A stretch of DNA of 64,000 nucleotides from an uncultured Alphaproteobacteria bacterium (GCA_963774685.1 CAVZFU010000005.1:1081538-1145537), one strand, 5' to 3'. Positions 1-49,564 are shown, numbered from the stretch's first letter. Numbers and translations are program-made. Notes: generated by a model not told the origin, from the sequence alone.

Positions 1-595
1 TGGTGATGCCGATGAACACCTGGCCGAGCTGGACATTGGGCTCGACCGTGGTGCCGACCCGGCGCACCTTGCCGACGACGTCGCCGCCGCCGATCACCTT
101 GATCTCGGCGTCCTGGCCGGGCTTGAGCTTGGCGAGATTCTCGGTCGGCACCAGGCCGACCAGGTCGAATTCGTTGCGGGCGATGATGGAAAACAGCGCC
201 TCGCCCTTGCCCGACGCATTGGCGCCGATCACCGCCGAGGAGGTGGCGATCAGCCCGCCGACCGGCGCCTGCACCTGCACCGAGCCGCCTTCCGGCAGCG
301 TGAGCCGGGCCAGCACCTGGCCGGCGGTCACGGTATCGCCGGCGTCGGCCAGGATTTCCGCGACTTTCAGGCCCTGCCGCTCGGGGCGGACCATGGTCTC
401 GTCCCGCGCGATCACGGTGCCCGAAACCTCGGCGACGGCGTCAAAGCACGACTTCGCCGCCTTGAGCACGGTGACCGTGGCGCCCTTCGGGGCGTCGGCT
501 TCGTCGGCGGCGAGGGAAGGGGACGCCGCGGCGAGGGTGAGGATGCTGGCGGCCATCGGGACCAGCCACGTCCGCGCGCGTTTGGATGCATTCAT
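1..595 (-). CDS. Efflux RND transporter periplasmic adaptor subunit (3' end outside the window); lacks the alpha-helical hairpin
   Basis: Not in the ORF track; translated manually from ATG at 595: MNASKRARTWLVPMAASILTLAAASPSLAADEADAPKGATVTVLKAAKSCFDAVAEVSGTVIARDETMVRPERQGLKVAEILADAGDTVTAGQVLARLTLPEGGSVQVQAPVGGLIATSS... It has a signal peptide and both lipoyl half-motifs, and resembles the adaptor at 10800-11729. Confidence 0.85.
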   Translation of the reverse strand, partial: MNASKRARTWLVPMAASILTLAAASPSLAADEADAPKGATVTVLKAAKSCFDAVAEVSGTVIARDETMVRPERQGLKVAEILADAGDTVTAGQVLARLTLPEGGSVQVQAPVGGLIATSSAVIGANASGKGEALFSIIARNEFDLVGLVPTENLAKLKPGQDAEIKVIGGGDVVGKVRRVGTTVEPNVQLGQVFIGIT

Positions 596-673
596 TAGCT
601 TTTGATCCCGTTTCCACGGTCATCGATATCAGAAGGCTGGCTTGGGAGCCAAGTGGCATCGAAAAGGTATAAC

Positions 674-2131: not shown

Positions 2132-4615
2132 TTACGACGACAACTGGCTGCGCCGCGGCTCTGTGGCGGACACGTCATTCGCGGCCTCGGTCGGCTCGCC
2201 GTCGCCGATCCAGCGCAGGATATCCATGGCCAGCACCGGATGATTGAAACCCTTCAGCTGCAGGTCGTCGAGCTGGGCGGCTTCGACCCATTCCTCGACG
2301 ATGCCATAGACGCGCCGGGAGACCACGACCTGGCCGGCCTTGGCTTCGTCGCACAGCCGCGACGCCAGATTGGTGACGCTGCCGATCGCGGCATATTCCA
2401 GCCGTTGTTCGAATCCGATCTGGCCCAGCGTCGCATAGCCGAGCGCGATGCCGACGCCGAATCCGAGGCTGTGGCCGCGGTTGCGCCATTTCTGGGTCAA
2501 CAGGCCGATGGCGTCGCGCATCTCGACCGCCATCTTGACCGCGCGCCTGGTGTGGTCGGCAAACTTGATCGGCGCGTTGAACAGGATCATCACGCCGTCG
2601 CCGGCATAGCGGTCGAGCGTGCCTTCGTAGCGGAAGATCAGTTCGCCCAGTGCGGCATGATATTCGCGCAGCACGTTCATGGCTTCCTCGGGCTCGGTGG
2701 CCTCGGTGAAAGCGGTGAAGCCGCGCAGGTCGCAGAACACCACCGTCACTTCGCGGCGGTGGCTGTCGAGCAGCGAATCCTGGCCGTCGGAGGAGGCGAT
2801 CAGTTGCGCGACCTGCGGCGGCAGGAAGCGCTCGAGCCGGCGGATGCGCTCGATTTCGCCGATCTGCTTCTCGACCCGTTCTTCCAGCGACTTGTTCCAG
2901 TCCAGGAGCTGCTCGGTCTGTTCCTGCAGCTTGCCGGCCTGTTGCTGCACGATCGAATGCGCGGAGGCCAGTTCGCGGCCCTTATGGTCGACTTCGGTGA
3001 ACAGCCGCGCGTTGCGCATGGCGAGCACCGATTGATGCGCAAAGGTCCGCATCAGTCCGATCAGGTTCGGCGAGAATTCGCCGGTGGCCCGGCGCAGCAC
3101 CACCAGCGATCCGAGCGTGCCCTGCTGGTCGACCAGCGGCACCACCAGCACCGATTGAAAGCCGGCCTTGAGCGCGATATCGCGCAACAGGTTGTCGTCG
3201 GCGCCGGCAAGGTCGGAAATCGCGATCGGCTCGTCCCTGGTGGCGGCTTCGCCGAGCACGCTGGCGCCGTAGTCGATCGCAAGGTGCGCGCCTTCGGCGG
3301 TCTTGTCGATGCCGATGGCCTCGGTCAGGTTGAACTGCTGCTTTGCCGCGTCATAGCCGTAGATCAGCACCGCGTCGGCATGGGTGATTTCGAGCGCGCG
3401 CGCCGCCACCGTCGGCAGCACGGCGTTGAGATCGAGCGAGGAGGAGACGGCGCGGCCGACTTCCTCGAGCACTTTGAGTTCGTTGACCGAGCGCGCCAGA
3501 TCGCGGGTGCGCTCCTGGACCTTGGATTCAAGGCCCGAATAGGTCTCGGCGAGCTGGCCCGCCATGCTGTTGAACTGGTCGGCGAGCTCCTTCAGCTCAT
3601 CCCTGGTGCGCACTTCGATGCGGTGGCTGAAATCGCCTTCGCCGAGACGGCGCGCGCCGCTGCGCAAGGCGGTGATCGGGATCAGCATGCGTCGCGCCAG
3701 CACGGTGCCGGCGAGACTCGCCACCACCAGCCCGAGCATGATCAACAGCACGATCCGCGCCAGCTGATCGCGGATCGGCGCCATCGCCTGGCTGGTCGGT
3801 TGCTCGAAGAACACGTACCAGCCGAGTTTCGGCAGTCCGTTCGATGCGGTCAGCACCGCATGGCCGTCGGTATCGGTGCCCGAGGTCGGAGCCTGGCTCG
3901 CCGAGGTCAGGCGTGCGGCGACCTGCGGCAGGGTCGCGACGTTCTTGCCGACCTCCGGGCCCTTCGACGAACTCGCCAGCACCTGGCCTTTCGGATCGAC
4001 CACATAGGCAAAGGCGGCCCTGCCGACCTGGGCGTCGCCGATAAATTCCGACAGGAAATGCAGGTCGATATCGGCGATGGTGACCCCGGCGTTGTAGCCG
4101 GAATGCGACACCGAGATCGACATGAAGGGCTGCCGCTCCCGGAAGAACGCCGGCGAGTAGCTGACGCCCCTCGCAACGGTTTCGGTGAATCTCGGGTCGT
4201 GGGAGAGGTCGGCCTTGCTGCCGACCGCAATCGTCAGGCGCGACAGCCGCAACAGTTCACGGCCGCTGCCGTCGATCAGCGAGAGCTGGTTGACCGCGGG
4301 CACCTGGTTGAGCAGCTGGGCATAGTCGGCGCGGTGCTGTTCGAGCGGCGCGCGCGCTGCGTCCGAACTGGCGCGGGTCACCCAGCTGATCTGCCGCTCG
4401 AGTTCGGAGACCGACTGTTCGATCCGCCGCGCGGTGGTCTCGGCCTTGTCCGACATCGCCCCGGTCAGCGTGGTCTTGATGCTGCTGTAGCTGATCCAGG
4501 TTTCCAGCGCGCCGTTGACCGCGAGCACGAACACGACAAGACCAACCAGCGCGATCACGTATTTGGCGAACAGGCCCTCGCGCAGACGTCCAATTTTTTC
4601 CCTGAAACCGCTCAT
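2132..4615 (-). CDS. Membrane class III adenylate/guanylate cyclase (TM-Cache-TM-HAMP-GAF-cyclase)
   Basis: 827 aa with two TM segments, HAMP (DELKELADQFNSM), GAF (GTLGSLVV...TFAHQSVLAM) and catalytic motifs FCDLRGFT, AGDGVM, NLASRL. Confidence 0.92.
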   Translation of the reverse strand: MSGFREKIGRLREGLFAKYVIALVGLVVFVLAVNGALETWISYSSIKTTLTGAMSDKAETTARRIEQSVSELERQISWVTRASSDAARAPLEQHRADYAQLLNQVPAVNQLSLIDGSGRELLRLSRLTIAVGSKADLSHDPRFTETVARGVSYSPAFFRERQPFMSISVSHSGYNAGVTIADIDLHFLSEFIGDAQVGRAAFAYVVDPKGQVLASSSKGPEVGKNVATLPQVAARLTSASQAPTSGTDTDGHAVLTASNGLPKLGWYVFFEQPTSQAMAPIRDQLARIVLLIMLGLVVASLAGTVLARRMLIPITALRSGARRLGEGDFSHRIEVRTRDELKELADQFNSMAGQLAETYSGLESKVQERTRDLARSVNELKVLEEVGRAVSSSLDLNAVLPTVAARALEITHADAVLIYGYDAAKQQFNLTEAIGIDKTAEGAHLAIDYGASVLGEAATRDEPIAISDLAGADDNLLRDIALKAGFQSVLVVPLVDQQGTLGSLVVLRRATGEFSPNLIGLMRTFAHQSVLAMRNARLFTEVDHKGRELASAHSIVQQQAGKLQEQTEQLLDWNKSLEERVEKQIGEIERIRRLERFLPPQVAQLIASSDGQDSLLDSHRREVTVVFCDLRGFTAFTEATEPEEAMNVLREYHAALGELIFRYEGTLDRYAGDGVMILFNAPIKFADHTRRAVKMAVEMRDAIGLLTQKWRNRGHSLGFGVGIALGYATLGQIGFEQRLEYAAIGSVTNLASRLCDEAKAGQVVVSRRVYGIVEEWVEAAQLDDLQLKGFNHPVLAMDILRWIGDGEPTEAANDVSATEPRRSQLSS

Positions 4616-4732
4616 CCAGTCCCCTCGTGCGCCATTCCTAGCACAAATCGGGGGGTTTTGGCCGGGGACTGCCGGTGTGGTTAGCCGGGATTTTGGGCCG
4701 TTAATGCTAATTCCGGCGGCAGTGATGGAGGC

Positions 4733-6716
4733 CTAGCGATTGAATAACTGCTTGAGGACGTTGTTCATCGGCTGGCTGTCCTGCGGGGGCTGCGACGTCG
4801 AGTTGCTCTGCGCGCGGAGGCGTTGCGGCCGGCGGCGCGGCCGGGTTGGGGGGGCCGCCTTGCACGTTGCGGTTATTGCCCAATCCCTGCTGCAGCAGGT
4901 TACCGAGGGTCTCGCCGAGCTTGCCGCCGAGCAGGCCGGACTGGTCGGTGCCGCCGCCGATCCGGGGCCGCCAGATTGCGAGGTTGCCGAGACCGCCGCC
5001 TGCGAACAGGCCTTTGCCCATCTCCCTGAGCTTGGCATAGGCCGCGTCGGGGTTGTCGAAAATGCCGTTCATTTCCGGATAGATGCGCGGCTGGGCCCAG
5101 GGGCCGTCGATGATGACGGGAATGCCGAGCCCGACCGGGTCGCCGGCGCGGCCCTGGCCTTCGGTGGTCATCACGAGCTTCGGCTCGACCCGGAACGCGA
5201 GCTGCTTGCCGATCAGGTCGATGGTGCCGGCGCCGGTCATTTTAACCAGCGGGCCCACCAGGGTGAGATCGGAGGTGGTGGCCTGGCCCTTGTCGAGCCG
5301 GAACGAGGCGCTGAGCTGCGCAAGGTCGGTGGCTTGTCCTTTGCCTTCCTGCCAACCCGACAGCGTTCCCGAGGTCAGCGAACGGATCATCTGGGCGACG
5401 TTGAGGCCGCGGATCGCGCCGTCCTGGAAAATCGCGAACACCGTTCCGTTCAAATTCGAGACGATCTCGCGCGGGCTGTTGCCGGAGGAGTTTACAACGA
5501 TCTTGGCCTGCATCTTTCCATCGAGCTTGTCGAAATCGGCCGCGCTCTTGAGCAGCGCCAGCGCGCCAACCCCGGCAAGATCGCTGCGCAGCGTGTAGGC
5601 CGGATAGGCTGCGGATACATCGACGGTGAGTTGGCCGCCGGCCTGGCCGTCATAGGCCCCGAGATTGGGGAAGTCGGCCTTGAGCACGCCGCTGACGAGC
5701 GTGGTGTCGATCGCAGCGGGGGCGAAATGCGCCGCGCCGATGTTCAATTCGGCGGCGGAAACCCTGACCTGGAGGTCGATATAGTTCAGCCGGTTGACGT
5801 CGATCGATTCGGTGCTCCAGCCCTGCTGGGAAGCCTGCGAAGCAACCGGGGCGGCAGCCGCCGGTGTCGTGATGTCAAGCCGCTGGAAGTCGAGATCGAC
5901 TTTTACCAGCGGCTTGCTGGAGAGATCGACCGATGCCCATCCGTTGAATGCGCCATCGCCGATCGTCCCGCTCAGGCCGTTGATCATGGCGACCGAACCG
6001 TTGAGCCGGACGTCGGCCTTGCCCGACAGCGGAGCCTGCAGACGATTCGGGTCGTCGAGGGTCAGTTCGACCGGAAAGTTTTGCCGCTCGATCGGGGAAG
6101 CCGGCAGCGCCGCCCTGATTCCGAATTTGATCGGGCGTTCGCCCGCGCCGGCACTGCCGTTGATCTCGATCCTTCGATCGTCGCCGATCTTGATATCGGC
6201 ATTGATGTTGTCGATACGGCTGTTGACGAGGTCCCGCACGTTGGAAAATACCGCGGTGCCGTCGGTGACCGTCACGTGATCGATGACGAAAGCCTTCGCA
6301 TCGGTCGTGCTGGAGGATGTCGCCGGCCGGGGCGGCAAATTGGGTGCAATGGTGCGTTCGCGCAGCAGCGGGATGTGGACGGTCGGGTGAACAATCGCAA
6401 GCTCGGTGACTTGCGGATGACCCGACCATACGCTGGCAAGCGTCACATCGGCCTCGACGCTGCCGATGGTCAGGTGCTTGCTGATGTCGCGTTGTTGCGG
6501 GTCCTCAAGCGTGAGGTCTTTCAACGTCAGGTGCAGCGACGGCCAGATGCCGATTTTGGTCCCGCCGTGGATGGTCAGCTGATAGCCGGTTTCGCGCTCG
6601 ACCTGGTCCTGTATCGCCGACGTCAGAAAGCCGGAGGGAACGCCGACGATCAGCAACAGGATCGCGACAACCACCACGGCAGCGATGGTTGTGCCTGCAA
6701 TTTTCAGTGCTTTCAT
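4733..6716 (-). CDS. AsmA family protein (apparent +1 frameshift near 4815)
   Basis: N-terminal anchor with AsmA-like N and C domains. The plausible C-terminus QDSQPMNNVLKQLFNR* lies in another frame ending at 4733. Confidence 0.8.
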
Positions 6717-6848
6717 ATCGTCGTTCCAAACCGGGCAAGCAGCATCTAGGTAGCCCGTCGCGATCGGGCGTTGCTAATCATTCAAGCTTATCCCGGAGGG
6801 GAAACAGCTCAAAGCGACCAAAAATTAAGCGGGGGTGCTGCAAAGTTA

Positions 6849-6864
6849 TGTGACTTATGGCACA
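6849..6864. promoter_or_regulatory. CRP-type box between asmA and crp
   Basis: TGTGA-CTTATG-GCACA, one mismatch to TGTGA-N6-TCACA. Confidence 0.55.
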
Positions 6865-6922
6865 CTTCGAACGAAGCGGGTTTCGTACGATCCCTGTTGG
6901 CCACCTCAAGTAGCCGGAAGGC

Positions 6923-7603
6923 ATGGCAATGAGCAAACAGAGCGAATTCGCGGTTATTTTGAAGATGAATCCGATGTTCGCGGACCTCGGCGCCGACGAA
7001 TTGCAGCGAATCTCCGGTCTTTGTCATACCCAGCAGCTTTCAGTGGGCGGGGTGCTGTTCCAGAAAGGCGACAGCGGTGACGCCCTGTATGGGGTCCGCC
7101 GCGGCCAGATCCGGATCGAAACCGGCGCCTCCGATGGCAGCCGCCTGACCCTCAATTTCCTGGGTCCGGGCGACGTATTCGGCGAGGTCGCAGTGCTCGA
7201 CGGCGAGACCCGCACCGCGGACGCCACCGCAGGCGAGCCGACCGAATTGTTCGTGCTCCGGCGGGAAGACTTTCTCGCCCATCTCGAACGCGAGCCGCGC
7301 GTGGCGATCAAGCTGATCCAGCTTCTGTGCCAGCGGATTCGCTGGCAGAGCGAGCGGATGGAGGAATCGGTGCTGCAGCCGCTGCCGGTACGGCTGGCGC
7401 GACGGCTCTGCGCGCTCGCCTCCGATTTCGGCTCCGAGGTGCATATCTCCCAGGAGCAGCTCGGCGTTTTCGTCGGAGCGGCGCGCGAAAGCGTCAACCG
7501 TCAACTGCAGCAATGGCGCAAGGACGGCATCCTGGACCTGCAGCGCGGCCGGATTTTATTGCGAAACATCGGCCGGCTGACCGCAGTGGCGCGCAACGAA
7601 TAG
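6923..7603 (+). CDS. Crp/Fnr family transcriptional regulator (cNMP-binding)
   Basis: Phosphate-binding cassette GEVAVLDGETRTADA; HTH SQEQLGVFVGAARESVNRQL retains the CRP R-E-x3-R recognition residues. Confidence 0.93.
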   Translation: MAMSKQSEFAVILKMNPMFADLGADELQRISGLCHTQQLSVGGVLFQKGDSGDALYGVRRGQIRIETGASDGSRLTLNFLGPGDVFGEVAVLDGETRTADATAGEPTELFVLRREDFLAHLEREPRVAIKLIQLLCQRIRWQSERMEESVLQPLPVRLARRLCALASDFGSEVHISQEQLGVFVGAARESVNRQLQQWRKDGILDLQRGRILLRNIGRLTAVARNE

Positions 7604-7656
7604 CGCAAGGCTGCGCCCGCTCGCGGTACGACCGCGATGCGCTCCTCGGCTGATCG

Positions 7657-10600
7657 TTATTCCGCGGCCGGCGAATGTACGATGCTCGGCGGAGGTTTGG
7701 GATCTCCGGAATGATCGGCCGGCGGTTGCTCGGTATCGGTATTTGTAGAGACCAGTTTGTGGCCGAGCCGACTGAACAGCACGGCCACATCATCCATCAT
7801 CATGAACATCGCCGGCACGAACACCAGCGACAGCACGGTGGAGAATATCAGGCCGCCGATCACGGCCAGCGCCATCGGCGAGCGGAATTCACCACCGGCG
7901 CCTTCTGCCAACGCGCTCGGCGTCATGCCGGCCGCCATGGCAATGGTCGTCATGACGATGGGTCGGGCGCGCTTCATGCCGGCGTCGATGATCGCTTCGG
8001 TGCGGGGTTTGCCTTCGCGGATCGCTTCGACCGCGAATTCCACCAGCATGATGGCGTTCTTGGTAACGATGCCCATCAGCATCAGCATGCCGATATAGAC
8101 CGGAACCGTCAGCTGGTTGCCGGTCAGCAGCAATGCCCCGATCGCGCCGCCGATCGAGAGCGGCAGCGAGAACAGGATGGTGATCGGCTGCAGGAACGTT
8201 CCGAACAGCAGCACCAGGACGGCGTAAACAATCATCAAGCCCAGGGTCATCGCGGTGACAAAGCCGCTCGCCAGATCCTTGAGGGCTTCAGCATCGCCGG
8301 AGGGGGCGACCGTGACGCCCTTCGGCAGGCTTTTCTTGACGGGCAGCTCATCGATCCTCTTGGTGGCTTCGCCCAACGCCGCGGATCCGACGAGGTCGGC
8401 AGCAACCGTCGCCTGGCGTTGCCGGTCGTAGCGATTGATGCTGGTGGGGCCCTGATCGAGCTTGATGTCGGCGACAACGGACAGCGGCACGCCGCCCTTT
8501 TCGCCGCGCTGGCCCAAAGGGACCCTCAATTGCTCGAGGATCGGCAGATCGCCGCGCGCTGAATCCTCGAGCTGGACCCGGATCGGCACCAGCCGGTCGC
8601 CGGCGTCGAACTTGGCAAGCGCCGGACCGACGTCGCCGATGGTGGCGACCCGAATCGTCTGCGACAGGCTTTCGGTGGAAACGCCGAGCCGCGCCGCCAG
8701 ATCCGCCCGCGGCTGGATCCGTAATTCGGGACGGTCGAGCGAGGTCTCGGAGATCACGTCCGAGATCAGCGGAATCCGCTTCATCTGCGTCGCCAGCTCG
8801 TTGGCGACGTTGCCGACCACGTTGCTGTCCACGCCGGTCACGACCAGCGATATGGCGCGCTGACCATTCTCGTCGAGGAACCAGTACCGGATGTCCGGAA
8901 CATTTTCGAGGTCCTTGGCGATCGAAAGCTCAAGTTGGCGTTGCGTGATCTTGCGTTCGCCTTTCGGCGTGTAGTTGATGATCAATGCCGCGCGACGTAC
9001 TTCGAGCGTTCCCGGCGGCACCCGGCCGCCATCGACGAACACGCTCTTGACCTCCGGCCGCTTGCGCAGACGCGCGACAATTTCTTCGGTGACCTTCTCG
9101 GTGAAAGCGAGCTGCGAGCCGGGCGGCAACTCCATTGCCAGCAGCGAGCGCGCCGCGTCCTGGGCCGGAAGGTAACCTTGTGGCAGCTGGGTAATGCTCC
9201 AGATCGAGGCTGCGAAGATTCCGAAGCCGACCAGCACGGTGATGAAATAGTGCTGCACCGACCAGGCTACGAGGCGATGATAGCTTTGCAGCGCGCGTCC
9301 CGGCGGCGGATCTTCGTGCGTATGATGCTTCAAGAAATAAGCGGCCAGCATCGGCGTGACGAAGCGGGCCGCTAGCAATGAAAAGAATACCTGCACCGAC
9401 ACCGTAATGCCGAACTGCTTGAAGAATTGACCGGCGATCCCGGACATGAAGCTTGCAGGTGCAAAGATCGCGATGATGGTCAGGCTGATCGCGATAACGG
9501 CCAGCCCGATTTCGTCGGCGGCCTCGAGGGCCGCACGATAGGGCGTCTTGCCCATCCGCATGTGCCGGACGATGTTCTCGATCTCGACGATGGCGTCATC
9601 GACCAGAATGCCGGTCGAAAGGGTGATGGCAAGAAAACTGATGAGGTTGAGCGAGAACCCGAGAATGTCCATCGCCCAGAATGCCGGGAAAATCGACAGT
9701 GGTAGCGAGATCGCCGCGATGGCGGTGGCGCGGATGTCGCGCAGGAACAGCAGGACGATGATGACGGCGAGAATGGCGCCCTCGAACAGCGTCCGGATGG
9801 CAGCCTCGTAGTTGCCTTTGGTGAAGTCGACCGACGTGTCGATCAGCTTGAGATCGACATCGGGATACTGATCCTTGAGGGCATCGATGCGTTTCTGGAT
9901 CGCCGCTGCGACGACCACGTCGCTGGCGCCCTTCGAACGTTTGATGCCGAGCGCGACCACCGGTTCGCCGTTGAAGCGGGCAAATGTCCGGCGGTCGGCG
10001 ATGGTGTCGGTCACGGTCCCGAGATCGTCCAGGCGTACTTCGCCGCCGCCGAATAGCGGAATCATGGTTCCGGCGAGATCGTTGAGCGTCTTGGCGCCCG
10101 CCAGCGTCCGGATCGCCTGATCGTTCTTTCCAATCTCAGCCCGGCCGCCGGCAAGGTCGACATTGGTGCCGCGCAGGCTTTGGCTGACGTTGACGGCGGT
10201 CAGGCCGGCGGCCTGCAACCGGTCGGGATCGAGCGACACCAGGATTTCGCGCTCGACGCCGCCGATGCGCTCGACCTGGGCGACGTTGCGCACGCCTTGC
10301 AGCGCGCGCTTGACCACATCGTCGACGAAGTAAGACAACTGTTCGGGCGTCTTGCCGGGCGAGATCGCGGCATAGGTGACGATGGGCAGACCGATCACAT
10401 CAACGCGTTGAATCAGCGGCTCGTTGACGTTTTGCGGCAGATTGCTTCGAACGCTGGTGACGGCATCCTTGACGTCATTCAGCGCCCGGTCGGTGTTGGT
10501 TTCGAGCGCGAACTCGATCGTCGTCAACGACAGTCCGTCGGTGATCGAGGATGAGATGTGCCGCACGCCCTCGACGCCTGATACGCCGTCTTCGATGGTC

Positions 10601-10803
10601 TTGGTAACCTGCAATTCCAGTTCGGCCGGGGCGGCGCCGAATTGTGCTACCGCAACCGAAATCACGGGGATATCGGCGCTGGGAAGGCGGGTCACCGCGA
10701 GCTTGGTGAAACTCATCCAGCCCAAAACCAGCAGGATGATCGAAAAAACGATGGACGGAAGCGGGTTTCGAATCGACCACGCCGAGATATTCAGAGCCAT
10801 CAA
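7657..10803 (-). CDS. RND efflux permease (AcrB/D/F family)
   Basis: 1048 aa; proton-relay motifs GILVDDAIVEIENI, GIVTKNAI and RARPIVMT are intact. Confidence 0.95.
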   Translation of the reverse strand: MMALNISAWSIRNPLPSIVFSIILLVLGWMSFTKLAVTRLPSADIPVISVAVAQFGAAPAELELQVTKTIEDGVSGVEGVRHISSSITDGLSLTTIEFALETNTDRALNDVKDAVTSVRSNLPQNVNEPLIQRVDVIGLPIVTYAAISPGKTPEQLSYFVDDVVKRALQGVRNVAQVERIGGVEREILVSLDPDRLQAAGLTAVNVSQSLRGTNVDLAGGRAEIGKNDQAIRTLAGAKTLNDLAGTMIPLFGGGEVRLDDLGTVTDTIADRRTFARFNGEPVVALGIKRSKGASDVVVAAAIQKRIDALKDQYPDVDLKLIDTSVDFTKGNYEAAIRTLFEGAILAVIIVLLFLRDIRATAIAAISLPLSIFPAFWAMDILGFSLNLISFLAITLSTGILVDDAIVEIENIVRHMRMGKTPYRAALEAADEIGLAVIAISLTIIAIFAPASFMSGIAGQFFKQFGITVSVQVFFSLLAARFVTPMLAAYFLKHHTHEDPPPGRALQSYHRLVAWSVQHYFITVLVGFGIFAASIWSITQLPQGYLPAQDAARSLLAMELPPGSQLAFTEKVTEEIVARLRKRPEVKSVFVDGGRVPPGTLEVRRAALIINYTPKGERKITQRQLELSIAKDLENVPDIRYWFLDENGQRAISLVVTGVDSNVVGNVANELATQMKRIPLISDVISETSLDRPELRIQPRADLAARLGVSTESLSQTIRVATIGDVGPALAKFDAGDRLVPIRVQLEDSARGDLPILEQLRVPLGQRGEKGGVPLSVVADIKLDQGPTSINRYDRQRQATVAADLVGSAALGEATKRIDELPVKKSLPKGVTVAPSGDAEALKDLASGFVTAMTLGLMIVYAVLVLLFGTFLQPITILFSLPLSIGGAIGALLLTGNQLTVPVYIGMLMLMGIVTKNAIMLVEFAVEAIREGKPRTEAIIDAGMKRARPIVMTTIAMAAGMTPSALAEGAGGEFRSPMALAVIGGLIFSTVLSLVFVPAMFMMMDDVAVLFSRLGHKLVSTNTDTEQPPADHSGDPKPPPSIVHSPAAE

Positions 10804-11729
10804 CGTCCCCGCGTTCGATCGAGGTCCTCGGCGAATATGGTCTTGATCTGGTCGCCGTCATGCAGCGAACTGCCGGCGTCGGCCACGACGGTTTCGCCTA
10901 CGTCGAGACCTTCCAGGATTTCCGTCGAGGTGTCGGACACCAGTCCGACACGAACCTTTCGCGTCTCGACCGTATTCCCTTTGACCACCTGAACGGTCAG
11001 ATGGTCAATGGCGGTGCGCGGGACGGAAACGCCGTTGCAGCTTTGTTTGGCGTTGATGTTGGCGCGGGCGAACATGCCTACCTTGAGGGACGGATTGTTG
11101 GTGAGCGATATCCTGACATGGCCGAGCTGGGTCGCGCGATCGATTTGCGGCGACACCTGCCTGACGCGCCCGACGAGATCCGGCGCGTTATCCCGGCTGA
11201 TCCGTACTATCGCTCCCGGATTGAGCTTCGTCATGTGGAAGGCAGGTACTTCGGCGTCGAGTTCGATTTCGTTGTTGACGGAAATTCGAAACATCGGACC
11301 GGCCTGCGGCGAGGCCGGCGCTCCGACGATGGTATTGACCTGGATGACCAGCCCGGCGGCCGGCGCACGCAGCGAGGTCGGAGCGGATCGCGCGCCGCCG
11401 GCGGGAGCTCCGGGCTGCGCCGGCGGAGGCGTCAAGCGGGCCAGTTCCTGATTGTCGGTAACCGTGTCGCCTTCGTGGACCAGAAGATCGGAAACCTTGG
11501 ATCCCTCCTGGTCGACCCCGACAACCGCTTCCCGGCGGGGCACGACAAATCCGGTGGCCCGCACCAGGTCGGAGAAACAGGCATTGGTGGATTTGGTCAC
11601 GACAACCAGGGCTTTGCCCGGCGCTTCCTTGTCTTCGACAGGGGGACGATGCTCGAACCAGTACCATGCGCCACCCAGGGCAATCACGGCAACCGCGGCT
11701 ATCGCGGGTTTGAAGTATGCGGAGAGCAT
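10800..11729 (-). CDS. RND periplasmic adaptor, hairpin-less
   Basis: N-terminal TM; lipoyl halves VHEGDTVTDNQELARL and LRAPAAGLV joined by a ~20 aa Pro/Gly/Ala linker; beta-barrel and membrane-proximal domains (GLDVGETVV). Overlaps the permease start. Confidence 0.88.
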   Translation of the reverse strand: MLSAYFKPAIAAVAVIALGGAWYWFEHRPPVEDKEAPGKALVVVTKSTNACFSDLVRATGFVVPRREAVVGVDQEGSKVSDLLVHEGDTVTDNQELARLTPPPAQPGAPAGGARSAPTSLRAPAAGLVIQVNTIVGAPASPQAGPMFRISVNNEIELDAEVPAFHMTKLNPGAIVRISRDNAPDLVGRVRQVSPQIDRATQLGHVRISLTNNPSLKVGMFARANINAKQSCNGVSVPRTAIDHLTVQVVKGNTVETRKVRVGLVSDTSTEILEGLDVGETVVADAGSSLHDGDQIKTIFAEDLDRTRGR

Positions 11730-11776
11730 CATCGCCGGATCAATCCAGGCCCTGTGTCGGGAGGAGCGTTTTGGAT

Positions 11777-11818
11777 CGTCATTCCGGAGCGAAGCGAAGC
11801 ATCGAATCCCGGATCTCG
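11777..11818. repeat. Partial REP-like element
   Basis: CGTCATTCCGGAGCGAAGCGAAGC...; shares GAGCGAAGCGAAGC with 16716-16746. Confidence 0.45.
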
Positions 11819-11938
11819 AACCACCGTGTCCGTGCCAGCGCACCATCCCTGAATGGCAAAGAATGCGTCCCGCAAGGCTGCGGGACGCATAACGGTTGCA
11901 GAACTTTACTCAGTGCCAGCGCCTGTCGACGGGTCCGT

Positions 11939-12598
11939 TCACTTGTTGGACGCGGTGGTCTTGTTCTCCATATTCACGACCTGCACGCGACGGTTCGCCT
12001 CAGCCAGCGGGTCGCTCTGGTTCTTGAGCTTGGTCTTGCCATAGCCGACCGTCACGAGATCGGGGGCGGCGATACCGAACTTGCTCATCAGGTAACGCTT
12101 GATCGAGTCCGCGCGCCGCTCGGACAGGTCCTGGTTGAAGGAGTCACCGCCGGCGGCGTCGGTATGGCCCGCGACGAGGAAGGTCGACCCCTTCAGGTCG
12201 GGATTGGTAAGCGCTCTTCCGAGAGCCTGAACCGCCGGCAATGATTTGGCGCTGATATCGGCTGAATTGTAGTCGAAAGTGATTTCCAGATCGATATTCG
12301 GCTTGTCCTTGACCATGGTGGCGATTTCTTCGCGCTCGACGTTCGAGAGCGAGCGGGTCGACCGGTTGCGAATGGTGCTGACAAAACGCCCTTCGCGGGC
12401 GACGGCCTCCGGATCGACCTGTGGGCCCACCGACAAGCCTCTGGTCAAGACCGGCTTGACCGGAACCAGCGCCTTGACGATTTGATCCTCAGTGACATCG
12501 CCGGCGACGGCTCTTCCCACGCCAAAGGAAAGTGTCACGGCAATCGTCGCGATCGAAAGGATCGCGGTGAGATTTTTCCTTCCAGACATCTTCAACAT
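11939..12598 (-). CDS. OmpA/MotB C-terminal-like peptidoglycan-binding protein
   Basis: Signal peptide; ITFDYNSADI, VAGHTDAAGGDSFNQDLSERRADSIK, NRRVQV. No beta-barrel. Confidence 0.9.
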   Translation of the reverse strand: MLKMSGRKNLTAILSIATIAVTLSFGVGRAVAGDVTEDQIVKALVPVKPVLTRGLSVGPQVDPEAVAREGRFVSTIRNRSTRSLSNVEREEIATMVKDKPNIDLEITFDYNSADISAKSLPAVQALGRALTNPDLKGSTFLVAGHTDAAGGDSFNQDLSERRADSIKRYLMSKFGIAAPDLVTVGYGKTKLKNQSDPLAEANRRVQVVNMENKTTASNK

Positions 12599-12766
12599 TT
12601 CCCAGTCCTCCTGCGCTGCCCGCGCGGTTCAAATCGATTTGCAAACAAGCTGCCGGACAATAATTCATCGCGGCCGGTTCTTCCGAATTTTGACTGCTTC
12701 GTCCTTTGTCTCCGGTGCAGGCCCTCAGGTTCGAGGAAACACCGTTCCTCCCACTCAAATTACCCG

Positions 12767-14284
12767 TCAATTTACCCCATAACTCGCGAATTCCTTAGCA
12801 ATATTTGGGTCCATGGCCTTGGCGTTGTTTATATCCAGGTTGCCCTCCTCCGTCGCGCCATTGCGTTGCTTGGCGAGGCCGCGCCCGTACAGGGACGAAG
12901 TCAGCCTCGGATTGATCTTCAGGGCGGCGTCGAAATCGGCAATCGCATTCTTGGTCTGCCCGCTCTTCAGGTTCACGAGGCCACGGCTGTCGAGGGCGTC
13001 GACAAAGTTCGGGCGCAACCGAAGCGCCTCGTTGCAATCCTTCAAGGCGGCCTGCAGGTCGCCGATCACCGTGCGCGCCCAGCACCGGTTGTTGTAGGCC
13101 TCGACGTCCTTGGGATTGAGCCGCAGCGAGTCGTCGAAGTCCCTGATTGCAAGGCTATAAGCTCCCTTGCTGGCGTAGACCTGTCCGCGCCGGTAAAGCG
13201 AGGCCGAGTCGTCCGGGTTTTCGATCAGCTTGGCCGTCAGGCTTTTGATGGTCGGGTCATCTGCGAATGTGTCGTTTTTGGCTACCGATGTAATCGGGGG
13301 AGTGACCGGAGCAGCGACTGGCGGAGCCACCGGAGCAGCGACCGGGGGAGTAACCGGTGGGGCGACTGGGGGAGCAACGGGTGGCGCGACTGGCGGGGCA
13401 ATCGGCGGTGCGACCGAAACCTCCGGCGATTTTGGAGGCAAAGGCGGCAGCGGTGGCGGCTGTGGCGGCAGCGGCGGGGGTTCGTGAGCGGGGACCGATG
13501 CTACCGGACCGGGCGGCCGCGGGCTCGAACCCGGCGTACCCGGGATAAACGAAAAATCCTCAGCCAGAGAGGACGAAATCCATGGCACCTGTTCGAGGCG
13601 GGATGCGCGGGTGACGCCGACGCGGGTTCGATTGAGCGTCTCTTCAGCCATCAGGTCGGGAACGCGAATTTCCTTGAGCAGCTCTTGTACGAACAGGCTG
13701 CGGTCGCCGCCATCATCTGAGACGACCGAACTAAGCGCCGCCGAGTACATCACCAGCGTTCCGTTCGGCGCGATCACCGGTGCGAGACCGGCCGAAAAAC
13801 TCCGGAATCGGCGCTCAAAGGGATTGCGCCTGCTGGCGTCGATCAGTGCGATTTTGACGCCGGCGCCGCGGCTGTTGATTTCGCTCAGCACCGTTTCGAG
13901 GCTGAAACCATCGCGGCGCACGTCAGGCTCGGTCCAGATCTGCGCATCGACCGGGATCATGTAGCTCTGGCGGGCTGACTGTACGCCGAATCCGCTGAAG
14001 AAAATCAGCGCAATAGAGCCGGGCTTGATGCGAGCGTAGAGGCGATCGAAGGCGCGGCGCATGTTTTCGCCGGTCAGGTTTTCGCCGATTTCGACGCTAA
14101 ACCCGTCGCGCTTGAGCTCGTCGGCGACGTCACGGGCGTCGTTTATCGGTTCCTTGAGCGGCGCATCGGCGTCGGGATATTTGGCGTTGCCGATGACCAG
14201 AGCGAACCGGTCGGCCGCAGCCGACGGGGCGGCTGGCGCGATCGAAAAAATCAAGATCAGAAGCAGTGCAAGGCGCGTTCTCAT
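12767..14284 (-). CDS. Secreted caspase-like (peptidase C14) domain + Pro-rich linker + TPR repeats; catalytic dyad substituted
   Basis: RFALVIGNAKY...PINDA; FFSGFG replaces the usual AGHG and DASR replaces DACR; C-terminal TPRs (AYNNRCWAR, ALDSRGLVNL). Confidence 0.9.
   Translation of the reverse strand: MRTRLALLLILIFSIAPAAPSAAADRFALVIGNAKYPDADAPLKEPINDARDVADELKRDGFSVEIGENLTGENMRRAFDRLYARIKPGSIALIFFSGFGVQSARQSYMIPVDAQIWTEPDVRRDGFSLETVLSEINSRGAGVKIALIDASRRNPFERRFRSFSAGLAPVIAPNGTLVMYSAALSSVVSDDGGDRSLFVQELLKEIRVPDLMAEETLNRTRVGVTRASRLEQVPWISSSLAEDFSFIPGTPGSSPRPPGPVASVPAHEPPPLPPQPPPLPPLPPKSPEVSVAPPIAPPVAPPVAPPVAPPVTPPVAAPVAPPVAAPVTPPITSVAKNDTFADDPTIKSLTAKLIENPDDSASLYRRGQVYASKGAYSLAIRDFDDSLRLNPKDVEAYNNRCWARTVIGDLQAALKDCNEALRLRPNFVDALDSRGLVNLKSGQTKNAIADFDAALKINPRLTSSLYGRGLAKQRNGATEEGNLDINNAKAMDPNIAKEFASYGVN
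13290..13414 (-). repeat. Degenerate 12-nt tandem repeat encoding about ten PPVA-like units
   Basis: Protein VAPPIAPPVAPPVAPPVAPPVTPPVAAPVAPPVAAPVTPPIT. Confidence 0.9.
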
Positions 14285-14507
14285 ACGACGGCAGTCCAGC
14301 CCACAACAGGCGCCGATCCGAGCTTGCGCCGCGGCGACCTTACTCTACGGAAACTCCATTATCAAACCGGCTGATCGAGGCCTGTCAACTGGCACAAAGC
14401 CGCTGATAACAGTGACAATTAACCGCGACGGCGCATCGCAGAACCTTACTCGAAATCGGTCAACGGGACAGCCGCGGAGCGACGCATTTCGCACCGCAAT
14501 GACATAA

Positions 14508-14523
14508 TGTGATGAATATCACA
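14508..14523. promoter_or_regulatory. Perfect CRP-type box
   Basis: TGTGA-TGAATA-TCACA within ATGTGATGAATATCACAT, between the divergent caspase-like and lactonase-like genes. Confidence 0.65.
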
Positions 14524-14647
14524 TAGCGGCATAACAGTATCCGCGCGGGTTTGACCTTTGTCGATGACGGTGGCTTGGTGCGACGATCGGTCATAGGCCC
14601 CGAAAATTGGTGCCCGAGAAGCTGGCACCCAAGAAAAAGTGAAACCG

Positions 14648-15454
14648 ATGGGAAACGTCTACGAAATTTACGCGCTCCGCTACGCAACCATGTCGCCGCG
14701 CACGCCCCAGATGAATTATCTCACGCCGGATCCTCACGAAACCACGGCCTCTGATCTCGATTACTTCGTGTGGCTGATCCGGGGCGGCGGCCGCGATATC
14801 CTGGTCGACACCGGCTTCAATGCCGCCGAGGCGCAGGCGCGAAACCGCAAGCTGACGCTCAATCCGGTCGATGCGCTGGCGCGCTTCGATGTCCGCGCCG
14901 ACGACATCAGGGACGTGGTCGTCACCCATCTGCATTACGACCATGCCGGTAATCTCGATCGTTTTCCCAAGGCGCGATTCCATCTGCAGGATCGAGAGAT
15001 GAGTTTCGCCACCGGACGCTGCATGTGCTTCGGGACTTTGCGTCATCCGTTCTCGGTCGAACATGTCACGCTGATGGTCCGCCACGTCTATGGCGAACGC
15101 GTCACCTTTCATTCCGGTGACGGCGAGGTTGCGCCGGGCGTGACGGTGCATCGGGTCGGCGGCCATTCCGATGGCTTGCAGGTGGTGCGGGTCGAAACCG
15201 CGCGCGGAGCGGTGGTACTGGCGTCGGATGCGGCGCATTACTACGGCAATCTGCATCGCCGCAGTCCGTTTCCGATCGTCTATAACGTCGGCGATATGTG
15301 CGTAGGCTGGGAAATTGTCGAGCGTCTGGCCGGCCATCCCGACCGCGTCATTCCCGGGCACGATCCGCTGGTTGCCGAGATCTATCCGCGCGCCAGCGAC
15401 AAGGTCGATGCCTATTCGTTGCATCTGCAGCCTTCTCGCTCCTTCGTCAAATAG
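14648..15454 (+). CDS. N-acyl homoserine lactonase-like MBL-fold hydrolase
   Basis: LVDTG, THLHYDHAGN (HxHxDH), GGHSDG, LASDA, PGHDP. Confidence 0.85.
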   Translation: MGNVYEIYALRYATMSPRTPQMNYLTPDPHETTASDLDYFVWLIRGGGRDILVDTGFNAAEAQARNRKLTLNPVDALARFDVRADDIRDVVVTHLHYDHAGNLDRFPKARFHLQDREMSFATGRCMCFGTLRHPFSVEHVTLMVRHVYGERVTFHSGDGEVAPGVTVHRVGGHSDGLQVVRVETARGAVVLASDAAHYYGNLHRRSPFPIVYNVGDMCVGWEIVERLAGHPDRVIPGHDPLVAEIYPRASDKVDAYSLHLQPSRSFVK

Positions 15455-48292: not shown

Positions 48293-49564
48293 ATGATTAC
48301 AGGAGCGAGCGCTGTGGCAGCGAAAAATCATGCGCAATGGCTTTCGGAACCCAATTTGCAGCAGAATGAATGGGTCGATAGCCGGATCTACTCCGACCCG
48401 CAGATCTTCGAAGAAGAAATCGAGAAGATCTTTTCCAAGACCTGGGTTCCCGTCTGTCACGAATCCGAACTGCCGAACGCATACGACTTCCGAACCATGT
48501 CGATCGCGCGCGAACCGGTGATCGTGTGTCGTGGTCCCGACAACGAGGTTCGTGCGTTCCTCAACGTCTGCCCGCATCGCGGCATGATCATCGAGCGCCG
48601 GCCGTCGGGCAGCTTTCTCGAAGGCCAGCCGTCGGGAAATCCGAAGCGGATGACCTGCATGTTCCATGCGTGGCAATACGATATGCGCGGCAATTGCGTC
48701 TATATCAGCCGCGAGAAGGAGGGTTTCCAGGATCGGCTTTGCAAGGAAGACGTCGGGCTGCGCCGGCTGCGCTGCGAGGTGAAGTTCGGCGGCTTCGTCT
48801 GGGTCAACCTGGACGACAATCCGAAGGTGTCGCTGGAGGACTGGGCGGCGCCCGCCTTTAACTGCCTGCGCAAGACGCTCGACGCCGAGCCGATGGAGGT
48901 TTTTCACTATCACAAGGCGATCGTGAACGCGAACTACAAGCTGTGGCATGACACCAACTGTGAATTCTATCACGACTTCATGCACTACCATAACCGCGTC
49001 ACCGGCTTTAACGACGCGTACTTCGCGCGCAAGAACGAATCGTTCGAGCACGGCCACATCGTCGTCGGCACGTTTGAGGTCAATTACGAGAAATACGAAG
49101 GCTTCGACAGCCGCGCGGCGCTCTCGTTCCCGCATCTGCCGCCGAACCAGTGGTACATGATCGATCTGTTCCCAGGCATGAACTTCAATCTGCGCGGTTC
49201 GGCGCTACGTTGCGACATCGTGACGCCGCTCGGTCCGGACAAGATGATGATCGAATTCCGCGGCCTCGGGCTGAAGCGCGATACGCCGGAAGAGCGGCAG
49301 ACCCGCATCAACCACCACAATTCGATCTGGGGTCCGTTCGGCCGCAATCTGCACGAAGATCTGATCGGCGTGCAGGGGCAGGGCACCACGATGCAGACCG
49401 GGTCGGAGCCGCGGAGAATTCTTCACGGCCGTCATGAGAACCAGACCATTCATGACGAGAACGGCATGCGGCACTATTACGAAGAGTGGGGCCGCTGGAT
49501 GAACAGAATGCCCAACCATCCCGACCAGTCGTACTCCGGGGCCGCTTCGATTGCCGCGGAGTAG
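48293..49564 (+). CDS. msmA: Methanesulfonate monooxygenase hydroxylase alpha subunit
   Basis: Rieske motif CPH-X26-CMFH; the 26-residue spacer is the described hallmark of MsmA. Also NYKLWHDTNCEFYHDFMH (mononuclear Fe ligands). The start could be GTG at 48314. Confidence 0.9.
   Translation: MITGASAVAAKNHAQWLSEPNLQQNEWVDSRIYSDPQIFEEEIEKIFSKTWVPVCHESELPNAYDFRTMSIAREPVIVCRGPDNEVRAFLNVCPHRGMIIERRPSGSFLEGQPSGNPKRMTCMFHAWQYDMRGNCVYISREKEGFQDRLCKEDVGLRRLRCEVKFGGFVWVNLDDNPKVSLEDWAAPAFNCLRKTLDAEPMEVFHYHKAIVNANYKLWHDTNCEFYHDFMHYHNRVTGFNDAYFARKNESFEHGHIVVGTFEVNYEKYEGFDSRAALSFPHLPPNQWYMIDLFPGMNFNLRGSALRCDIVTPLGPDKMMIEFRGLGLKRDTPEERQTRINHHNSIWGPFGRNLHEDLIGVQGQGTTMQTGSEPRRILHGRHENQTIHDENGMRHYYEEWGRWMNRMPNHPDQSYSGAASIAAE

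Follow-up and report, generated by a model that had tools for sequence, protein, structure and literature searches.

A conserved alphaproteobacterial gene cluster combines an RND pump and pseudocaspases with a putative cyclic nucleotide-Crp circuit and is a likely hub of a dispersed envelope regulon

Clr of S. meliloti, a cluster G member of the Crp regulators, works with the cyclases CyaD1, CyaD2 and CyaK (PMC10127613, PMC10187061, PMC4222275), and its regulon is described as consisting chiefly of genes for the cell envelope; its sites are placed at -42 to -76, and its cyclase genes are partly linked (PMC10187061, PMC4222275). Pseudo-orthocaspases of the FS and YS classes have been catalogued in the Rhizobiales (Klemencic et al. 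2019, PMC6426788). Here we describe a gene cluster, conserved in Bradyrhizobium and related genera, that encodes relatives of both. Most of it lies in a 64,000-nt stretch of DNA from an uncultured Alphaproteobacteria bacterium (CAVZFU010000005.1:1081538-1145537), hereafter the window; the source genome was labelled G000 and its contigs C1, C2 and so on. Literature searches returned nothing specific on this cluster or on cyclic AMP (cAMP)-Crp regulation in Bradyrhizobium or Rhodopseudomonas, and nothing specific in later work on pseudo-orthocaspases of the Rhizobiales.

The predicted core of the cluster consists of a proton-driven RND pump, two hairpin-less adaptors (adaptor 1 and adaptor 2, genes mfp1 and mfp2), two secreted and apparently dead caspases (the first and second pseudocaspase, pcasp1 and pcasp2), an OmpA_C protein that would bind peptidoglycan, and an AsmA-like protein. 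A putative second-messenger pair, made up of a Clr-like Crp and a class III cyclase that would sense the periplasm, is encoded between the pump and adaptor 2 genes. Pfam and NCBIfam profile scans of the window proteins recovered all the genes listed in an initial annotation of the window (cyclase, AsmA, Crp, RND, adaptor, OmpA_C and pseudocaspase-TPR), and both of the Crp-type boxes it had reported exist, the one at 6849 with one mismatch and the one at 14508 perfect. Throughout, a box is the 16-bp motif TGTGA-N6-TCACA. The same annotation had taken these genes for a self-contained envelope machine controlled by a cyclic nucleotide monophosphate (cNMP). Conservation of the cluster and of its boxes, and the co-occurrence of box and crp, lend partial support to such control, but self-containment is not supported: the same motif is found upstream of relocated cluster members and of about ten other exported-protein genes elsewhere in the genome. 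Nor is the adaptor at 1-595 the sign of a paralogous neighbouring module, as had been supposed, since adaptor 2 is a fixed member of the same cluster. We consider it reasonably probable that the cluster, with its integrated cNMP-Crp circuit, serves as the hub of an envelope regulon that is dispersed over the genome, rather than as a closed module. If so, no other cNMP-Crp regulon would have been defined earlier in Bradyrhizobium and its relatives, whose many cyclases have no assigned role, and its CAP-like motif is directly testable.

The conservation of the gene neighbourhood, which the initial annotation had proposed as a check, was followed in 80 Bradyrhizobium loci, retrieved via pseudocaspase homologues, and in 62 sampled genera of the family, with inspection of 20-kb neighbourhoods from 18 genomes. 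The genes co-occur in about 12 genera of the family, and rearrangements keep the linkage; Crp orthologues (at least 57% identity) were found in 14 of the 62 sampled genera. In the 80 Bradyrhizobium loci the order, as far as the contigs extend, is lact / pcasp-ompA-mfp-rnd / crp / asmA-cyclase, lact being the gene of a metallo-beta-lactamase-fold hydrolase. The recurring order in other genera, in which Crp is 66-91% identical where the cluster order is shared, is pcasp1-ompA-mfp1-rnd, crp on the other strand, asmA-cyclase-mfp2 and a convergent pcasp2, and in the fullest form an OmpA-like gene and an active caspase gene (~744 aa, His-Cys intact) are located upstream of pcasp1, and the gene of a 621-aa protein without known family stands divergent from pcasp2.

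Such an arrangement might also be a matter of adjacency by descent, with Crp and cyclase forming a general pair and the pump and pseudocaspases being functionally untied to cNMP signalling. Neither crp nor the cyclase gene accompanies the core in G442, which belongs to a different family, or in G038, where rnd is immediately followed by adaptor 2; about nine Bradyrhizobium species have no crp at this place, the pump run has a strong promoter-like element of its own (see below), and the box-bearing targets include metabolic genes (IlvD/Edd-like and lact operons). We nevertheless regard this explanation as unlikely, because the linkage outlasts an inversion of the cyclase-mfp2-pcasp2 segment, which is still linked to the rest (g35), the loss of the cyclase gene in two genomes and of asmA in one (G092, G102, G011), and even a reduction to crp-mfp-rnd, all on one strand (g43). 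Moreover, relocated cluster members retain Crp boxes, and the cyclase gene lies inside the asmA-adaptor 2 unit.

By their number in the window the boxes are not above chance, and the case rests on their conservation across species. Three boxes with at most one mismatch were found against 1.04 expected, a number reached in 12 of 100 shuffles, and 12 with at most two mismatches against 16 expected. The third of them, TGTGAATTCTATCACG, has one mismatch and is located at 48959-48974, within a methanesulfonate island. The box between crp and asmA is present with at most one mismatch in 51 of the 52 crp-bearing Bradyrhizobium loci, the position of the mismatch being constant; with the other genera included, 61 of the 65 loci in which crp and asmA are neighbours have it. 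The distance from its centre is about 67.5 nt to the crp start and about 142.5 nt to the asmA start. A consensus of 61 distinct sequences shows conservation over about 45 nt on the side of the box facing asmA and over no more than 4 nt towards crp, and an A/T-rich hexamer, TAATTT (-), has its centre 32 bp from that of the box. Because of this conserved flank and of the position of the hexamer, the geometry suits a class II Crp promoter that has its site at about -41.5 and would read into asmA-cyclase(-adaptor 2). The same box probably also autoregulates the divergent crp, since it lies close to the crp start. A scan with consensus promoter and terminator patterns gave two promoter-like sites, against 3.2 expected.

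The second box, between lact and pcasp1, is perfect in 40 of the 80 Bradyrhizobium species and has 25 different spacers among them, the pattern that selection on the half-sites alone would be expected to leave; purifying selection on the Crp-type boxes at the cluster is supported by the conservation of both. The box stands between two divergent transcription units, the pump run that begins with pcasp1 and a small operon headed by lact, with genes for a HIBADH-like dehydrogenase and a RidA-like protein. In an alignment of 21 intergenic regions, a -35-like TTGACC on the lact side is conserved, its distance from the box centre being 38 bp here and mostly 21-94 bp in the other regions; the spacing found here would put the 14508 box near -72. 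On the other side, a strong and conserved sigma-70-like element of pcasp1 reads TTGAC-N17-GATAAT in most species, with N19 here. The box would thus be at a normal activator distance for the lact operon and unusually far from the pump-run promoter, and most likely serves the lact-like operon. Crp control of the pseudocaspase-OmpA-adaptor-RND run from this box is possible but not indicated, because the run has its own conserved promoter-like element. No boxes were found upstream of unlinked lact genes in other genera, so that this type of box is mainly a feature of Bradyrhizobium. A box that serves only the lact operon nevertheless appears too simple a reading, because the OmpA-like gene that heads the array is preceded by a box 63-100 nt upstream in g35, in g53 (G102), in five further genera and in three Bradyrhizobium species, and g35 is without any lact orthologue. 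The locus also cautions that a perfect site ahead of an operon may serve the gene on its divergent side. In four Bradyrhizobium loci (L041, L044, L050 and L078) a TGTC-N8-GACA palindrome replaces the TGTGA box between lact and pcasp, in L078 at about the same distance from the lact start; it may represent a variant of the site or be bound by another regulator.

Beyond the cluster, the source genome contains 14 perfect boxes, of which 12 are intergenic although intergenic DNA, as delimited by a codon log-odds gene caller, makes up 16.5% of the genome; these 12 are spread over four contigs. An OmpA paralogue gene that is a cluster member elsewhere has moved to contig C1, where it has two perfect boxes, and in Bradyrhizobium a box with at most one mismatch is found at -78 to -113 of this gene in all 79 scorable loci. 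The active caspase gene has moved to contig C3 and has a one-mismatch box 141 nt upstream; a box lies within 400 nt of the relocated gene in 21 of 37 scored loci, and about 950-1040 nt upstream in five more, in which the gene is preceded by an OmpA-like gene. The remaining perfect boxes are mostly 35-90 nt upstream of small open reading frames (ORFs) with signal-peptide-like or membrane-spanning N-termini: an N-terminal hydrophobic segment was found in 10 of 13 box-adjacent ORFs, picked by eye, against a background of 29% (p = 5e-4).

These data bear directly on the possibility of a closed local module, in which Crp would drive the pseudocaspase-OmpA-adaptor-RND run from the 14508 box and itself from the 6849 box and would have no other targets. 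Both boxes do flank the cluster and are conserved, and the box upstream of the array-heading OmpA-like gene could drive read-through into the pump genes. We hold such a module to be very improbable, given the 12 perfect intergenic boxes on four contigs, the conserved boxes at the unlinked OmpA paralogue and active caspase genes, and the distance of the 14508 box from the promoter-like element of the pump run, about 130 bp against 38 bp for that of lact.

Two pairs of paralogous small ORFs with a perfect box 44-90 nt upstream were noted in the source genome (C2:1277188 and C5:919741; C2:235865 and C3:562666). One pair encodes secreted Cys-rich proteins of ~82-91 aa, the other single-pass membrane proteins of ~69-84 aa. 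To the left of the window (C5:1078131-1079996, minus strand), a conserved protein of 576-621 aa is encoded divergently from pcasp2 in at least five genera, and a one-mismatch box is located in the upstream region common to the 621-aa protein and pcasp2. The 621-aa protein had no match in Pfam, NCBIfam or the PDB.

The regulator presumed to bind these sites has the features of a cNMP-type Crp (PF00027, 77 bits; PF13545, 55 bits). As the initial annotation had noted, the phosphate-binding cassette (FGE...RTA, VFGEVAVLDGETRTADATA), which aligns with that of Clr, and the recognition helix, RESVNR, a full R-E-x3-R, are both present. Clr of S. meliloti (7pza, E 2.3e-30) is its best relative among solved structures, and it scores below the cut-off of the E. 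coli-type CRP equivalog NF008732 (61.8 against 266 bits). Judged by the definition in PMC10187061, it is no Clr orthologue, as both its helix and its sites differ (see below).

A second cNMP-type Crp is encoded at C2:235928-236650 (minus strand). It is 34% identical to the window Crp, has the helix RESVNK and an intact FGE...RT cassette, is present in more genera of the family and has a perfect box beside its gene. This paralogue might be the one that reads the TGTGA-N6-TCACA sites, the window Crp recognising another sequence or only its own promoter. The most conserved site, however, lies directly upstream of the window crp, and it is the window Crp that has the full R-E-x3-R helix. Furthermore, a box with at most one mismatch between lact and pcasp is found in 36 of 49 crp-positive loci and in one of 10 crp-negative loci (Fisher p = 3e-4; one locus counted as crp-negative, L048, has crp). 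This co-occurrence argues for the window Crp, at least at the lact/pcasp site, and we consider it improbable that the paralogue takes its place.

The cyclase has the features of a class III catalytic domain (PF00211, 71 bits), with the two metal-binding Asp and the Asn/Arg transition-state pair identified by eye from FCDLRGFT, AGDG and TNLASR, as compared with the canonical motifs. FCDLRGFT, (D/E)R(Y/F)AGDG and Y(A/S)A(I/V)GSVTNLASR are the forms conserved among its orthologues. In class III enzymes the substrate-specifying pair is Lys/Asp in adenylate cyclases and of the Glu/Cys type in guanylate cyclases. Here the pair, assigned by eye against the canonical motifs, is Arg/Ala and conserved in the orthologues, so that the product may be either cAMP or cyclic GMP (cGMP).

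In the circuit that we infer for this regulon, a periplasmic ligand would cause the cyclase to make cAMP or cGMP, and Crp charged with the nucleotide would bind (A/T)ATGTGA-N6-TCACAT sites. Bound at about -41.5, it would activate asmA-cyclase(-adaptor 2), with transcription of asmA starting about 41 nt downstream of the centre of the box, close to 6815 (minus strand), and hence act back positively on the cyclase; in genomes with an intact operon it would also govern the supply of the second adaptor. Other sites would turn on OmpA-like proteins, caspase homologues and small exported proteins, with the 14508 box most likely assigned to the lact-like operon.

Several points weigh against a regulon centred on the cluster. 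The only lineage in which crp is directly upstream of mfp-rnd, g43, has no TGTGA box with two mismatches or fewer. The internal gaps of the pump run hold no boxes, most other genera have none within 900 nt of pcasp1, and the spacing between the box and the pcasp promoter-like element, 130 bp here and 75-275 bp elsewhere, is not fixed. The species that enter the box counts are phylogenetically non-independent, the small target ORFs beside the genome-wide boxes were chosen by eye, and the RESVNK paralogue could bind the same motif. Finally, the gap between the cyclase and adaptor 2 genes, which are only about 200-300 nt apart in other genera, holds a toxin-antitoxin insertion in the source genome (708-1378, plus strand, and 1441-1935; a Gp49/HigB-like toxin gene and a gene for a 108-aa partner, with about 500 nt of non-coding DNA), so that this part of the circuit may be broken there.

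The permease is of the HAE1 type, with 12 transmembrane segments, an ACR_tran domain and an intact Asp-Asp / Lys / Arg proton relay (motifs VDDAIV, KNAIM and RARPIVMTT), and its best solved relative is MdtB. In adaptor 1, a Pro/Ala/Gly loop of about 20 residues, TPPPAQPGAPAGGARSAPTS, links the lipoyl halves in place of a coiled-coil hairpin, and the alpha-helical hairpin that reaches an outer-membrane channel is absent. BesA is likewise without hairpin, and from the sequence of adaptor 1 and its match to BesA we take this protein to be a hairpin-less membrane-fusion protein. Its homologues in other orders, which contain an insert of about 100 aa, align only from residue ~153 on. Adaptor 2, 296 aa when the complete gene is considered, is also hairpin-less and is 34% identical to adaptor 1; it is assigned to this pump because in relatives its gene follows rnd directly, in crp-less genomes, or otherwise asmA(-cyclase). 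RND homologues in other orders (47-59% identity) pair with ordinary hairpin-bearing adaptors and are without accessory genes, which points to the present cluster as a derived form of an ordinary efflux pump.

No OEP/TolC gene was found in the cluster by the domain scan, in agreement with the initial annotation, and no outer-membrane factor is linked to it. The three OEP genes of the source genome are all on another contig than the cluster, and an unlinked OEP partner of the pump is conceivable. Crp control of the missing channel was considered, as a perfect box is located 2 kb upstream of an OEP gene (C2:1277188), and was rejected, a small exported-protein gene and a tRNA gene intervening. With adaptors that would lack the usual means of reaching TolC, the RND pump prompts the question of what it exports and by which route. 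One scenario is a TolC-free trans-envelope machine, in which the RND protein and its stubby adaptors, with OmpA_C wall ties, a caspase-TPR scaffold and an AsmA-like lipid bridge, would deliver a lipid or other envelope component instead of expelling drugs, its assembly being gated by cyclase and Crp with positive feedback via the second adaptor. We offer it as a speculation that is rather unlikely to hold as a whole.

In pcasp1 the catalytic dyad has been replaced, with Phe for His (SGFG) and Ser for Cys (DASR), and a Pro-rich linker and TPRs are present. The protein corresponds to the FS pseudo-orthocaspases as defined in PMC6426788 (p20, Phe-Ser for His-Cys, C-terminal TPRs, no p10). A leader of about 75 nt upstream of pcasp1 (14290-14357, minus strand) is strongly conserved, CGTAGAGTAAGGTCGCCGCGGCGCAAGCT..GGCGCC, has the potential to form a hairpin and might act in post-transcriptional control. 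The open frame of pcasp2 (Tyr-Ser) extends over 644 aa, from 2-598 (plus strand) in the window leftward to C5:1080201, on the strand antisense to adaptor 2. The pcasp2 of other genera encodes 290-303 aa and ends before the adaptor gene, and the long frame looks like the result of a lost stop codon or a sequence error; the part at 2-598, opposite adaptor 2, is the read-through tail of pcasp2. The OmpA_C protein carries only the peptidoglycan-binding OmpA_C domain, with no beta-barrel and no lipobox. The AsmA protein has an AsmA domain and an N-terminal anchor, and reaches 76 bits against the AsmA equivalog, whose cut-off is 412. The positions of all these features are given in Table 1.

Table 1. 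Genes and candidate regulatory elements of the cluster (window coordinates)
Feature	Position	Strand	Basis or remark
Adaptor 2, 5' part	2..595	-	HlyD_3 / RND_mfp matches; gene extends past left window edge
Sensor cyclase, dCache_1-HAMP-GAF-Guanylate_cyc	2132..4615	-	Pfam
AsmA-family protein, N-terminal membrane anchor	4707..6716	-	PF05170, 100 bits; first gene of asmA-cyclase(-adaptor 2) unit by synteny
Candidate -10 hexamer TAATTT	6822..6827	-	Conserved across 61 loci; putative promoter role
crp/asmA box TGTGACTTATGGCACA	6849..6864	.	1 mismatch; crp/asmA divergent region
Crp regulator, cNMP_binding + HTH_Crp_2	6923..7603	+	Pfam; likely start at second ATG, 6929
RND permease, HAE1-like	7657..10803	-	ACR_tran, 757 bits
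Adaptor 1, HlyD-type	10800..11846	-	TIGR01730; 4-nt overlap with rnd; likely start Met39
Exported OmpA_C protein	11939..12598	-	PF00691, 74 bits; signal peptide
Secreted pseudo-orthocaspase, Peptidase_C14 + TPR (pcasp1)	12767..14284	-	Pfam
Sigma-70-like promoter candidate of pcasp1 run, TTGACA-N19-GATAAT	14358..14388	-	Alignment of 21 intergenic regions; putative role
14508 box TGTGATGAATATCACA	14508..14523	.	Perfect; between lact and pcasp1
-35-like TTGACC, lact side	14551..14556	+	Conserved in alignment; putative role
Metallo-beta-lactamase-fold hydrolase (lact)	14639..15454	+	Weak lactonase matches

Compared with described systems, the closest regulatory analogue is S. meliloti Clr, also an alphaproteobacterial cNMP-dependent Crp with class III cyclases and an envelope-centred regulon. 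However, Clr with its helix RPKVNR reads GTNNC-N4-GNNAC, whereas the window Crp has the helix RESVNR and the conserved sites are of the CAP-like form TGTGA-N6-TCACA, and no pump, pseudocaspase or AsmA cluster is reported for Clr in PMC10127613, PMC10187061 or PMC4222275. In its R-E-x3-R helix, its 16-bp palindrome, a site adjoining its own gene and class I/II promoter geometry, the system resembles E. coli CRP/CAP (PMC10187061). E. coli CRP, in contrast, uses the class I cyclase CyaA and has catabolic targets, whereas a membrane-sensor class III cyclase and envelope or exported targets are found here.

For the pump, Borrelia BesA (4kks) alone among the solved adaptors can be aligned without interruption to the whole of adaptor 1, and the best match is to the TriA-TriB fusion of Pseudomonas TriABC (6vej), which has two adaptors, as does this cluster. 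The TriABC pump requires two different adaptors, and both the BesA and the TriABC systems use a TolC-type channel. Here, unlike in those systems, no TolC-type gene is linked, and genes for OmpA_C, AsmA and pseudocaspase-TPR proteins stand alongside. The pseudocaspases themselves match the catalogued Rhizobiales pseudo-orthocaspases, pcasp1 with its Phe-Ser dyad and C-terminal TPRs and pcasp2 with its Tyr-Ser dyad; a link with photosynthesis has been suggested for these proteins, without gene context (PMC6426788), whereas here they are located at both ends of a pump cluster, within the proposed Crp-box regulon, and in other genera adjoin an active caspase. These catalogued proteins of unknown function can thereby be placed in a genomic context, with a pump, cell-wall anchors and an active caspase as neighbours, and in a putative regulatory one.

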